Assembly (NCBI GenBank): GCA_044343545.1
Contig: JAWBZR010000005.1
Location: 1 to 39,974, forward strand
Length of the DNA stretch: 39,974 nucleotides
Direction: 5' to 3'
Source: Candidatus Aenigmatarchaeota archaeon
GTDB taxonomy: Archaea > Aenigmatarchaeota > Aenigmatarchaeia > CG10238-14
The translations under genes were made by a program, and so were the position numbers. Below the pieces are notes generated by a model. The model searched no databases. It had not been told where the DNA came from and saw only the letters and a list, made by a program, of their open reading frames with translations. Position 1 is the first letter of the stretch, and the number at the start of each line of letters is the position of its first letter. Positions 10,911 through 34,294 of this stretch are shown here, piece by piece.

Positions 10911-13265
10911 TTATTCAGCAACAATGTTGTGCATCTTAATTAAATCCTTTTTAAATATTTCAAGCTCTTGAGGTAATTTAATTTTTATTTCAGCTTTCAA
11001 ACTCAAACCTTTATCCTTCTTCATTTTCCATACGAGAGAGTTAAACTCTATTATTTGTTTTGTATACTCTCTCAAACCAAAATTCCATTCAGCCTGTGGA
11101 AAACTTTCCTTATGGATGCTTTCTTTTCCGTAAACTTCTCTCCACACATAATCTGTCAAAAAAGGTATGATTGGTGCCAATAACTTTAATATCACTTTAG
11201 CGCATACGTGAAGAGTATAAAAAGCTGATTCTTGCTCCTCCATGCTAAAACCTTCACCATAGGCCCTCACCTTAACCATTTCTATATAGTGAGATGCGAA
11301 AACGTTCCATACAAAATTTCTTATTTCATTTGCCACATCACTAAATTCATAGTTTTTATAATGAATCATAACTTTTTCTATTAACGCGCTAAGCTCATCT
11401 AATATCCATTTGTCTGTATCAGTGAGCTTTGCTTTCTTCGGTTGCGGAAACATTGATATGAATCTAAAAATATTCCATAGTTTAGTTAAAAACTTGGAAG
11501 TTCCCTCGATGCGGGTGAAGGAGCATCGGATATCCCCAAGAGTTATATCTCCCTCTAAGCACGACCAAATCCTAAACGCTTCCGCGCCATATCTTTCCAA
11601 AACTTCTTGTGGATCCACAACATTACCGAGAGATTTACTCATTTTTTCTCCCTTTTCATCTACCACATGCATGTGTATCCAACATTCTTTGAATGGTGGC
11701 TTGCCATACAAATGCAAGGATTTGAGCAAAGTGTAATAAAGCCAATTTCTCACTATTTCTTTACCTTGCGGTCTCATCGTGCACGGAAAGTTTTTTTGGA
11801 AAAACTTCTTATCCCATAAATAACCCAAAATGTAAACCTCCGAGGAAGAAGAATCAAACCAAGTATCAAACGTTCTTTCCTCGCCTATAAATTCATTGCT
11901 TCCACACTTTGGGCAACTTTCTATGGGCGGCTTTTCCTTCCAAGGCTGATAGTATTTTCCCGGTTGAGGAACGTAAACATAATTGCATTTCTTGCAATAC
12001 CACAGCGGCACTTCAGTCCCGTAATATCTTCTTCTCGTCAAAACCCAATCTATGCTAATAGAATTTATCCAATCGATTAATATTTGCTTGCTTTGAGGTG
12101 CAAAAAATTTCATTTTGTTAGCCGCTTCCAAAAGCTCGGGTAAAAAATCGACTTGCTTTAAATAAAACTCCTTCAATGCAACAAATTCTATTGGATTTTT
12201 TGATCTCCAACATATAGGCTCTCTATGTTCTATTTCTTCCTGCTTCACGACTAAACCTCTTTTCTTCAACTCCTCTATAATCAACTTCCTTGCATCAGCA
12301 ACAGAAAAACCATTTAACATGCCAGCATTTTCATTCATCCTTCCATCCGTGTCAATAGCATAAGTTGGCTCCATGTTTAACTCTCTCAAAAGTCTCACAT
12401 CACCATAATCGCCAAAGCTACATATCATAACTAATCCAGATCCAAAATCTTGCTTTGCATAAGGATGTGCTTTTATTTCCACCTCTTTTTCGTATATAGG
12501 CACGATGGCATGTTTACCATTCAAGTGTTTGTATCTCTCATCATTCGGGTTAAATAATATTATCTTGCAACTGCAAAGCAATTCCGGCCTAGTTGTTGCT
12601 ATGACTATCTCTTCGTTGGTTTCTTTCACCTTGAATTTTATGTAATTCAAAAGCGTTTTTCCTTCCTTATACTCCACTTCGGCATCAGCTATCGCTGTCT
12701 TGCATACCGGACAGTAATTGGTCGGCTTTACGTCTTCATAAATCAACCCCTTATTCCACAACTCTATGAATGTTTCTTGTGTAAGCCTTCTATACTCGGG
12801 ATCATCGGTATCATATCTTCCGCCCAACTCATACTTGACTTGCCATTCGTTGCAGCTTAATCCTAAACGCTTGAAAGAATTTAAAGACACGTCTCCCGCC
12901 TTTTCCAACATTTCTTTACACTTGGCTATGAATTCTTCTCTCGGCGTTTCATGCATTTTTATGTTAAAAACCTTCTCTGCCATGACTTCTATCGGCAAGC
13001 CGTTCTTGTCTAAACCAATAGGGAAAAGAACGTTGAAACCCATCATCCTTCTACTTCTCGCCATTATATCTTGCCATACATAAGTGTATGCGTGACCTAT
13101 GTGTATGGGTGTGTTAACATAAGGTGGGGGTGTATCTATGCTATAGAGTGGTTTTTTGCTCTTCTTATTAAACTTGTATAAACCTTCCTCCTCCCATTTT
13201 TTTAGCATTAACTGCTCTATGTTTTTATCCCATTGTTTTTCTTTTAATTTTGGTTGGAATTTCAT
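10911..13265 (-). CDS. valS: Valine--tRNA ligase
   Basis: IDTPPPY, HIGH, ATTRPELL, GSGLVMICSFGD, FDTWFDSS, RPQGKEI, KMSKS. Confidence 0.96.
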   Translation of the reverse strand: MKFQPKLKEKQWDKNIEQLMLKKWEEEGLYKFNKKSKKPLYSIDTPPPYVNTPIHIGHAYTYVWQDIMARSRRMMGFNVLFPIGLDKNGLPIEVMAEKVFNIKMHETPREEFIAKCKEMLEKAGDVSLNSFKRLGLSCNEWQVKYELGGRYDTDDPEYRRLTQETFIELWNKGLIYEDVKPTNYCPVCKTAIADAEVEYKEGKTLLNYIKFKVKETNEEIVIATTRPELLCSCKIILFNPNDERYKHLNGKHAIVPIYEKEVEIKAHPYAKQDFGSGLVMICSFGDYGDVRLLRELNMEPTYAIDTDGRMNENAGMLNGFSVADARKLIIEELKKRGLVVKQEEIEHREPICWRSKNPIEFVALKEFYLKQVDFLPELLEAANKMKFFAPQSKQILIDWINSISIDWVLTRRRYYGTEVPLWYCKKCNYVYVPQPGKYYQPWKEKPPIESCPKCGSNEFIGEERTFDTWFDSSSSEVYILGYLWDKKFFQKNFPCTMRPQGKEIVRNWLYYTLLKSLHLYGKPPFKECWIHMHVVDEKGEKMSKSLGNVVDPQEVLERYGAEAFRIWSCLEGDITLGDIRCSFTRIEGTSKFLTKLWNIFRFISMFPQPKKAKLTDTDKWILDELSALIEKVMIHYKNYEFSDVANEIRNFVWNVFASHYIEMVKVRAYGEGFSMEEQESAFYTLHVCAKVILKLLAPIIPFLTDYVWREVYGKESIHKESFPQAEWNFGLREYTKQIIEFNSLVWKMKKDKGLSLKAEIKIKLPQELEIFKKDLIKMHNIVAE

Positions 13266-23968: not shown

Positions 23969-24952
23969 TCACTTTATTATTTCTTTGATTTCTACAGGTA
24001 AAAATGGAGTTTTGGGTTGCCTAACAGCATGCCTAAACATGATTAATCTCTTTTTTGGTCCTGGCACGGAGCCTTCCAATAATATCCAACTAGATTTTAC
24101 AACGCCATAATTTTTGTAGCCGGAAGGTGTGTTGATCTGCTTGGGATCTATATCGATTTTCAAGATCCTTTTGTTATACTCGGTTCTTTGGAAGAAGCCC
24201 ATTTGACCTTGCCGTGGAACAGTCCATCTAACTCTGCCAGGTGATTGCGAACCCAAGCTACCTATTTGTCGATGATGCTTCATATTCTTTCTCGGCTGTA
24301 TTTTCACCCCAAATCTCTTAACCACGCCTTCTGTGCCCTTGCCTTTGGTTATTGCAATGACGTCCACATATTCACCTTCCCTGAAAATGTCGCTAACTTT
24401 TATTTCCTTACCCAAGATTTCCCTAGCATATTTCAACTTTTCTTTTACATCTAAACCGCCGATGTCTATTTCAAAAACCTCTGGTGTTTTTTTACCAAGA
24501 CCGCTCAAGTGAGGAGATGTTGCGACAATTAAAGAAATGTCTGCAATTTTCGAAATATTTTTTTCTATTTTTGCAATCTTCTCCTCGGTTTTCACGTCTC
24601 CAATTTTTATCTTCCTTGCCAAATATCTATCTTTTTTTATGCTTTCGCTCAAAACATCTTGGAAAGCTTTGAGGCCATTATAATCTTGAGTATATGCTCT
24701 AAAACCTACGACTTTTAACGGTGGACACTCCAAAATCGTTGCAGGAATAACTATGTTTTCTCCTTTTGTCGGCGAATTCTTTCGCGTATCAGTAATGAGA
24801 AGGCTTATCATACCTACCTTGTATCCTGAAAATTCTAACGGTTTGAGTTTTTCAGAAATAGATTTACCTCTAACAGAAGGATAAATTCTTTTGGCTCTCT
24901 TTCTTGGGTAAAAAGCTAATGACCCTCTTCTCGGCCTTTTTGTTTTTGGCAT
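23969..24952 (-). CDS. rpl3: 50S ribosomal protein L3
   Basis: RPRRGSLAFYPRKRA, TKGKGTEGVVKRFG, GSVPGPKKRL. Confidence 0.97.
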   Translation of the reverse strand: MPKTKRPRRGSLAFYPRKRAKRIYPSVRGKSISEKLKPLEFSGYKVGMISLLITDTRKNSPTKGENIVIPATILECPPLKVVGFRAYTQDYNGLKAFQDVLSESIKKDRYLARKIKIGDVKTEEKIAKIEKNISKIADISLIVATSPHLSGLGKKTPEVFEIDIGGLDVKEKLKYAREILGKEIKVSDIFREGEYVDVIAITKGKGTEGVVKRFGVKIQPRKNMKHHRQIGSLGSQSPGRVRWTVPRQGQMGFFQRTEYNKRILKIDIDPKQINTPSGYKNYGVVKSSWILLEGSVPGPKKRLIMFRHAVRQPKTPFLPVEIKEIIK

Positions 24953-34170: not shown

Positions 34171-34294
34171 GCGGAGTTGGCAGAACGGCTATGCAACCGA
34201 TTGCTTTCAGCAAGTTGAAGCTGCAGAACCGGTGTGCTGATGAAAATGATGGTGCTGACACCGGTGGAAGAGGGTTCAATTCCCTCACTCCGCT
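34171..34294 (+). tRNA. tRNA-Cys(GCA) with two introns: 34200-34219 (position 30/31) and 34227-34259 (canonical 37/38)
   Basis: Removing both gives a 71-nt cloverleaf: GCGGAGT/ACTCCGC, ACCGG-CT GCA GA-CCGGT, GAGGG TTCAATT CCCTC, U73. BHB-type motifs at both introns; lies directly upstream of cysS. Confidence 0.88.
34227..34259 (+). ncRNA. Putative intron-encoded minimal box C'/D' guide RNA
   Basis: Guide ACCGGTGT(G), CTGA (D'), TGAAA, ATGATGG (C'-like), TG, CTGA. The guide is complementary to 34258-34265. Confidence 0.5.

Follow-up and report, generated by a model that had tools for sequence, protein, structure and literature searches.

A 33-nt tRNA-Cys intron in a Candidatus Aenigmatarchaeota archaeon as a probable single-K-loop guide for 2'-O-methylation of position 39 in its own precursor

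The stretch analysed here (the window) is 39,974 nt of DNA from a Candidatus Aenigmatarchaeota archaeon, positions 1 to 39,974 of contig JAWBZR010000005.1 in assembly GCA_044343545.1. It contains a tRNA-Cys(GCA) gene with two introns, the second of which (intron 2) is probably a natural guide of the C'/D' type: through a single K-loop (kink-loop) it would direct 2'-O-methylation of C39 in the unspliced precursor, which would then refold and be spliced. The separate parts of this reading are held with different confidence. A conserved alternative duplex together with a K-loop is accepted with high confidence, binding of L7Ae to the K-loop is predicted and judged likely, and productive methylation is predicted with somewhat better than even confidence. 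An earlier reading of the window made from its letters (the sequence-only reading) had proposed that the intron is a smaller, single-guide version in tRNA-Cys of the guide known from the pre-tRNA-Trp intron, and this proposal is supported by the conservation, covariation, spacing and sister introns described below. Coordinates are collected in Table 1.

The mature tRNA sequence, ACCGG-CUGCAGA-CCGGU over the anticodon arm plus U73, was fixed by the intronless orthologs L015, L016, L017, L021 and L023. These orthologs have the anticodon stem ACCGG/CCGGU or a variant of it and the loop CUGCAGA. The mature sequence fixed in this way makes position 34260 A38 and position 34261 C39, and it places the 3' splice junction (34259|34260) within the duplex described next. 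The cloverleaf is the computed fold of the mature (intron-free) sequence, and it was found together with the anticodon GCA and U73 of a tRNA-Cys. With lax filters, the Rfam tRNA model scored 39.6 bits over 34171-34294 (gathering score 29). The gene structure of three exons and two introns is close to certain.

Intron 2 reads A-ACCGGTGT-G-CTGA-TGAAA-ATGATGG-TG-CTGA-C (34227-34259), and its stretch ACCGGTGT (34228-34235) matches the reverse complement of ACACCGGT (34258-34265) letter for letter. Counted upstream from box D', the bases are G34236 (1), T34235 (2), G34234 (3), T34233 (4) and G34232 (5), and this fifth base pairs with C34261, that is, with C39, the predicted site of 2'-O-methylation. 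The intron letters and the 8-nt perfect complementarity given in the sequence-only reading agree with the sequence, and its assignment of the partner of G34232 to tRNA position 39 is settled by the intronless orthologs. A perfect 8-bp match of a 33-nt intron to about 20 nearby windows has a random expectation of about 1% (hand estimate), and for this reason the single sequence is weak evidence.

Orthologs were sought with BLAST and with covariance models. A BLAST search covering G000 and 60 relatives (61 genomes) located the tRNA-Cys locus in 18. The first covariance model, initially built from eight aligned orthologs, found the element in 20 of the 117 genomes of the order, in families f1, f2, f5 and f7. 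The second had matches in 13 of the 151 genomes of the class and added G004, G045 and G055 as well as four weak matches outside the order. The alignment examined has 20 rows (19 distinct) from four families, in which pairing of the duplex amounts to 99.3%. In 500 column shuffles the observed duplex pairing or covariation score was never reached, and pairing dropped to 30-40% when the 3' partner was slid by 1-3 columns. Three duplex pairs vary on both sides (AU 13, GC 3 and GU 2; CG 16 and UA 3; AU 8, GC 7 and CG 4). One of the covarying pairs lies between the eighth and the last base of the intron, and selection therefore acts on the RNA before splicing. Family f2 combines the anticodon stem GUCGG/CCGAC with UCGGUCU in the intron, C-G being changed to U-A opposite position 42. 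In G004, which is of the same genus and came from the second model, the stem is GUCGC/GCGAC, the intron has CGCUCU, and the fifth base is a C that faces G39. The column pair of the fifth base and position 39 (13:53) is G-C throughout the 19 distinct rows, and all 20 rows have a spacer (column 17) of exactly one base. With the orthologs at hand, chance is removed as the source of the duplex. Guide and target thus covary among orthologous introns, as had been proposed for a check, and the changes include those that track the anticodon stem of the tRNA itself.

A K-loop pattern of YUGA, a loop of variable length and R-U-G-A-N-N was found in 19 of the 20 rows, the exception being L039 of G017. Invariant in the rows with a K-loop are the G-A dinucleotides and the U before the G-A of C'. 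The first base of D' covaries with the sixth base of C' (C-G in 9 rows, U-A in 9 rows). Judged by these features, the K-loop of intron 2 matches the pattern of the archaeal C'/D' K-loop. If the sheared geometry of the C'/D' K-loop consensus (PMC7994747) applies, G34248-A34240 and A34249-G34239 would be sheared pairs, followed by U34250-U34238 and by G34251-C34237. The earlier assignment of these letters to a D'/C' K-loop is upheld by the conservation of D' and C' in 19 of 20 rows and by the covariation between them.

The second CTGA of the intron (34255-34258), which the sequence-only reading had set apart when spelling out the intron, is not a D box. It is made of the last three bases of the GCUG splicing strand plus A34258, sits 2-3 nt from C', and is conserved only within f1, with GCAAAC in its place in f5 and GCATAG in G008. 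The GCUG strand is paired in 76% of cells; most rows have three of the four pairs, and the place of the mismatch differs from family to family. A single mismatch that shifts in this way is what would be expected of the central helix of a relaxed bulge-helix-bulge (BHB). The exon side of this helix is invariant, so covariation is impossible there, and the inner helix has only 1-4 bp. Because the second CTGA is unconserved and pairs with loop positions 32-35, the intron is taken to have no terminal C/D motif, its 3' end being used for splicing. No box C-like sequence was found 5' of the guide in the 20 aligned rows, where only A or exon GCUGCAG precedes it, and no terminal C/D K-turn (kink-turn) was found in the 20 rows; a caveat to the effect that no clear terminal box C is present had been given at the outset and remains correct. 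An arrangement with CTGATGA (34237-34243) as box C and the second CTGA as box D, forming a K-turn on the 8-bp stem, was considered and rejected, as neither is conserved; TGATGA at 34238-34243 is limited to this genome and G010.

In the minimum-energy fold of the precursor, the guide duplex is formed and the anticodon stem is not. With intron 1 removed, the guide conformer was computed at -42.8 kcal/mol versus -38.4 kcal/mol for a conformer forced to have the anticodon stem. Because the duplex buries the 3' splice junction, splicing would require refolding. The duplex also uses positions 39-43, and the earlier claim that guide pairing excludes the BHB fold is accordingly retained. Mutual exclusion of guide pairing and splicing fold is also a feature of pre-tRNA-Trp.

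Four other tRNA introns of the genome, in the genes for Trp, elongator Met, Leu(CAA) and Thr(UGU), share the design of a guide, one base, NUGA, a loop and UGAUG (Table 1). Their conservation was assessed on full-length or near-full-length matches only (17 for Leu, 19 for Met and 10 for Thr). The design is kept in 17/17 Leu and 19/19 Met introns, and in Thr it was recognised by script in 8 of 10 and by eye in the remaining two (G005 and G014), in which the guide begins at exon A37 and position 39 is still opposite the fifth base, the pairs numbering 8 and 6. D' of the Thr introns is only NNGA, and both inner K-loop pairs covary (AAGA/UGAUU, AGGA/UGACU, UCGA/UGAGA and GUGA/UGAUC). In the Met introns D' AUGA occurs with C' UGAUU, and D' UUGA with UGAUA. 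A loose K-loop pattern has 219 matches on both strands of the 651 kb, five of them in the approximately 430-650 nt of tRNA intron versus an expectation of 0.07-0.11. Positions 34 and 39 are both reported as targets of the pre-tRNA-Trp intron guide, and the wobble positions of Leu(CAA), Met and Trp as predicted C/D targets in Pyrococcus (PMC7994747, PMC4033218). It is proposed tentatively, with slightly less than even confidence, that this lineage uses a family of single-K-loop guides in the introns of at least five tRNAs, directed to position 39 in Cys and Thr(UGU) and to position 34 in Trp, Met and Leu(CAA).

Two further introns were seen alongside this set. The 65-nt intron of tRNA-Ser(UGA) at C1:91118-91266(+) (C numbers denote contigs) has a terminal stem UCGGU/ACCGA, a CUGA-GAUG-UGAUG K-loop and degenerate outer boxes, and may be a full-size C/D RNA. 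In another family of the class, the tRNA-Trp intron of G197 (L080) reads GGUCU-G-UUGA-loop-GAUGAUA with the fifth base opposite C39; a second UUGA upstream has its fifth base facing C34, and the arrangement resembles the known two-target Trp design.

The mechanism would proceed as follows. In the unspliced precursor the guide would pair with the last two intron bases and with positions 38-43, displacing the 5' strand of the anticodon stem. L7Ae would bind the K-loop and recruit Nop5-fibrillarin, and fibrillarin would 2'-O-methylate C39, opposite the fifth guide base, either inside a single precursor or across a pair of precursors held together by a Nop5 dimer. The RNA would then refold: with the anticodon stem formed and GCUG paired to positions 32-35, a relaxed BHB would arise that could be cut by the splicing endonuclease. 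Binding of L7Ae, assembly of a ribonucleoprotein (RNP) on a single K-loop, methyl transfer and the order of methylation and splicing are all parts of the model that we infer. The missing second motif could be replaced by the tether between guide and target in one RNA or by the Nop5-dimer bridge.

The pre-tRNA-Trp intron carries boxes C, D', C' and D within roughly 60-105 nt. In the Euryarchaeota Haloferax volcanii and Pyrococcus it is described as a box C/D guide for Cm34 and Um39 (PMC7994747, PMC4090602, PMC4033218), and according to reviews it is the one clear self-modifying tRNA-intron guide (PMC4090602). As far as these sources describe it, the Cys intron is like it in lying in the intron of the targeted tRNA, in addressing position 39 (the partner of 31 in the uppermost pair of the anticodon stem), in following the fifth-base rule, in having the unspliced precursor as substrate and in the presumed enzyme, L7Ae-Nop5-fibrillarin. 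The Trp guide is a full box C/D RNA with two guides, whereas the Cys intron has one K-loop and one 8-nt guide in 33 nt, no terminal C/D motif, a tRNA-Cys host and a DPANN-type archaeon as its source. In the DPANN archaeon Nanoarchaeum equitans, a small RNA (sRNA) of the C/D box type was proposed in the 66-nt intron of elongator tRNA-Met (Randau 2012, PMC3491384). As described there, that case shares with the present one the non-Trp tRNA intron, the DPANN host and C/D-like elements, and the Met guide of the genome studied here faces C34; the N. equitans intron has box C and box D, a terminal motif, and is twice as long as the Cys intron.

Compared with the C'/D' K-loop of archaeal sRNAs as given in PMC7994747, the Cys intron has the same short loop joining the boxes, the same guide immediately 5' of D' and the same tandem G-A pairs followed by a U-U pair and a Watson-Crick pair. 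In the sRNAs described there, the K-loop always accompanies a terminal C/D K-turn, whereas the K-loop of the Cys intron stands alone. In having one motif and one guide, with L7Ae, Nop5 and fibrillarin, the Cys intron is like the synthetic hemi C/D RNPs (PMC1635284). These are reported as engineered, dependent on unusual salt and lacking specificity, whereas the Cys intron is natural and holds guide and target in one RNA. The gene also resembles the relaxed-BHB introns of DPANN and TACK archaea (PMC5829648) in having several introns and in the non-canonical position 30/31, and relaxed BHB motifs are reported to be cut by broad-specificity endonucleases (PMC5829648). Ordinary relaxed-BHB introns have neither a K-loop nor a competing fold; the Cys intron has both. 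No C/D-type guide in an intron of tRNA-Cys, Thr or Leu, and no natural single-K-loop guide, was found reported in the open-access full text searched.

Fibrillarin, Nop5 (N-terminal and Nop domains) and L7Ae are all encoded in the genome, so that the search for these three proteins proposed with the sequence-only reading had a positive outcome. The genes for S-adenosylmethionine synthetase, Nop5 and fibrillarin form a head-to-tail row on a single strand at C19:9399-13715 (loci L001 and L002), and L7Ae is elsewhere. Fibrillarin was found in 114 of the 117 genomes of the order, and none of the 34 high-quality genomes lacked it. Because it is near-universal in the order, its presence does not discriminate between readings. 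In G010, a genome only 73% complete, the intron is present and fibrillarin had no match. Strict full C/D sRNA patterns gave 1 and 3 matches in the genome, all within long open reading frames, a result that is not evidence of absence. At the locus itself, the lax Rfam search gave no credible C/D family (snoR79 at 13.7 bits, E 3.8).

A possible C/D sRNA outside any tRNA was noticed at C1 ~24335-24400(-) as a free-standing candidate. Its boxes are variants (C AUGAUA, D' UUGA, C' UGAUGA and D UUGA), its terminal stem is GCGGC/GCCGC and its guides measure about 13 and 15 nt; the assembled 23S rRNA yielded no 9-base target for it, and 16S rRNA is absent from the assembly. A scan of 9-base guides beside YTGA against 23S rRNA gave 245 matches, versus 229-255 in five shuffles and 226 in the reversed sequence, and hence no signal. 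A C/D-like element at C22 ~11104-11135(-) (GAUGAUA, 14 nt, CUGA), approximately 150 nt upstream of the 23S rRNA gene, has nine bases complementary to 23S rRNA near 2848; this is a lone match from a scan without excess over shuffles.

Several points weigh against a methylation guide in intron 2. The intron has no terminal box C/D and only one K-loop. Single-motif RNPs were reported to be nearly inactive under standard conditions (Hardin and Batey 2006, PMC1635284), and the same paper describes site specificity as needing both motifs and the two-motif architecture as absolutely conserved in nature. The duplex of 8 bp (bases 2-9 upstream of D') is below the guide length of 10-12 nt given for archaea (PMC7994747). 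For five of the eight guide bases, identity with the 5' strand of the anticodon stem is unavoidable, and part of the complementarity could reflect the origin of the intron. The covariation comes from few events in related genomes. The boxes drift to UUGA with GAUA, GAGA or GAAA in f5 and f2, and to NNGA for D' in Thr. The refolding step is assumed, and the splicing helix has a mismatch in most rows. Losses among relatives are also seen. G017 (L039) keeps the duplex and has a plain hairpin in place of the K-loop, L018 and L019 (G019 and G012) have a 13-nt remnant in which only AUGAUG and the splicing strand are kept, and the intron of G221 (L081) has about 10-11 nt and no K-loop. L015, L016, L017, L021 and L023 are intronless at the locus, and L020 has no 37/38 intron and an intron elsewhere. 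By this comparison the element is dispensable.

The alternative that fares best, although unlikely, is that the K-loop is a structural element that binds L7Ae and has no role in methylation, the duplex being a stem beneath it. Such an element might stabilise the precursor at high temperature, time or check the splicing of a weak BHB, or order the removal of the introns. L7Ae alone is reported to bind K-turns and K-loops (PMC7994747), and a single motif is described as poor for specific methylation in vitro (PMC1635284). The BHB of intron 2 is relaxed, with three of four central pairs, and G017 retains the duplex without the K-loop. Binding of L7Ae alone, however, leaves unexplained why all 20 rows have a one-base spacer and why the fifth base faces position 39 or 34 in five tRNAs with intron sites as different as 37/38 in Cys and 30/31 in Leu. 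A stem that buries the 3' splice site would hinder splicing, and splicing is independent of the K-loop, as orthologs without the K-loop or without the intron exist.

It is improbable that the excised intron, linear or circular, acts in trans on another RNA and that pairing with its own precursor is incidental. The pre-tRNA-Trp intron RNP has been described as trans-acting (PMC4090602, PMC7994747), and the tRNA-Met intron of N. equitans as stable and abundant (PMC3491384). However, the covarying pair of the eighth and last intron bases and the pair adjacent to it can form only in the unspliced precursor, only 6 bp are left on spliced tRNA-Cys, and the guide follows changes in its own anticodon stem.

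A chance resemblance or a functionless relic, with a duplex left by an insertion that duplicated the anticodon-stem strand, is very improbable. Points in its favour are the shortness of the boxes, the 219 matches of the loose K-loop pattern in the genome and several losses of the element. These observations are set against conservation in four families with compensatory changes in both duplex and K-loop, enrichment in tRNA introns (5 observed vs about 0.1 expected), the retention of the design in all Leu and Met orthologs assessed (17 and 19), and a divergence among orthologs that argues against recent transfer of one sequence.

The least credible alternative concerns the identity of the gene and can be set aside almost entirely: a tRNA-Val(GAC) with one 55-nt intron at 30/31 and the second CTGAC as its anticodon loop, as called by ARAGORN with introns allowed, is contradicted by intronless orthologs that are unambiguously plain tRNA-Cys(GCA) with U73, by the clean BHB of intron 1 with its 3' cut at 34219|34220 (the 3' junction of ARAGORN has no BHB), and by the change of the second CTGA to GCAAAC or GCATAG in other families, which would destroy the Val anticodon loop. 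The locus was missed by the default ARAGORN run, and no second tRNA-Cys was found in the genome by ARAGORN. The Rfam search at the gathering threshold returned only two intronless tRNAs in the window and did not return this gene.

If a methylation guide in intron 2 is the correct reading, tRNA-Cys would join the self-guiding tRNAs, as would Thr, Leu and Met of the same genome, and the guide would be reduced to one K-loop plus 8 bases, a design described as barely functional in vitro (PMC1635284). If it is active, a one-motif C/D RNP would be workable with a guide-target tether or with a Nop5 dimer bridging two precursors, and the view of an obligatory two-motif architecture would be overturned. 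There would also be a selective reason for retaining tRNA introns in tiny genomes, as guide RNAs that stabilise the anticodon arm in a hot habitat. Three matters would become testable: the minimal RNA need of the archaeal C/D enzyme, the retention of tRNA introns in reduced DPANN genomes, and the order of methylation versus splicing when a 33-nt RNA adopts two exclusive folds. The gene was mis-assigned by standard tRNA finders, and snoRNA finders that need boxes C and D would miss guides of this kind.

Intron 1 of the gene fully agrees with the archaeal BHB, having two 3-nt bulges, a 4-bp helix and cuts within the bulges. In its central helix CAAC (34194-34197) pairs with GTTG (34214-34217), the cuts in the bulges fall at CG|A and AA|G, and TTGCT/AGCAA forms the inner hairpin. 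L009 and L011 show covariation of this central helix (CGAC/GTCG) and have different hairpins that nevertheless pair. Removal of intron 1 gives ACCGG, matching the intronless orthologs.

Table 1 Features of the tRNA-Cys(GCA) gene in the window and of the sister introns on other contigs, the latter with the coordinates of their loci
Feature	Coordinates	Strand	Remarks
tRNA-Cys(GCA) gene	34171..34294	+	three exons, two introns; discriminator U73 = T34294; CCA not encoded
Exon 1	34171..34199	+	tRNA positions 1-30; by-eye alignment with intronless orthologs
Intron 1	34200..34219	+	20 nt, position 30/31, textbook BHB
Exon 2	34220..34226	+	positions 31-37: G31, C32, U33, anticodon GCA at 34223-34225, G37
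Intron 2	34227..34259	+	33 nt, canonical position 37/38; 34228-34260 equivalent (A at both ends)
Guide element ACCGGUGU	34228..34235	+	bases 2-9 upstream of D'; 8/8 Watson-Crick pairs with 34258-34265
Spacer base G34236	34236..34236	+	single, unpaired, first base upstream of D'
Box D' CUGA	34237..34240	+	putative; UUGA in families f5 and f2; TGA kept in 19/20 rows
K-loop apical part	34241..34245	+	sequence and length vary among orthologs
Box C' AUGAUG	34246..34251	+	putative; R-U-G-A kept in all 19 rows with a K-loop
Splicing strand GCUG	34254..34257	+	pairs with anticodon-loop C32-C35 (34221-34224); relaxed BHB central helix
Target strand ACACCGGU	34258..34265	+	last two intron bases, A38, positions 39-43
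Exon 3	34260..34294	+	positions 38-73
tRNA-Trp intron	C2:19212-19331	-	6/8 guide pairs; fifth base opposite C34
Elongator tRNA-Met intron	C16:15701-15820	+	7/8 guide pairs; fifth base opposite C34
tRNA-Leu(CAA) intron, at 30/31	C13:2319-2435	+	8/8 guide pairs; fifth base opposite C34
tRNA-Thr(UGU) intron	C2:21231-21338	-	8/8 guide pairs; fifth base opposite U39

The assembly comprises 651 kb in 22 contigs, with an estimated completeness of 90% and approximately 35% G+C, and the window is contig C18. The closest named records to its Nop5 are proteins from Candidatus Aenigmatarchaeota metagenome-assembled genomes, with 64-72% identity. Contigs identical to those of this genome are present in three DNA runs, with the label hot springs metagenome, and the assembly may come from one of them; the only RNA run from a related study matched 0 contigs and no RNA run is listed with the locus, a result that carries no information on expression. 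Orthologous tRNA-Cys genes have up to three introns; the D-loop is interrupted in L010 and L011, and the variable or T region in L009 and L044. ARAGORN apparently also gave wrong identities to several other split tRNAs of the genome: it reported Ser(cga) at C13:2319-2435 for Leu(CAA) and Val(aac) at C11:54516-54608 for what is probably Gln(UUG).

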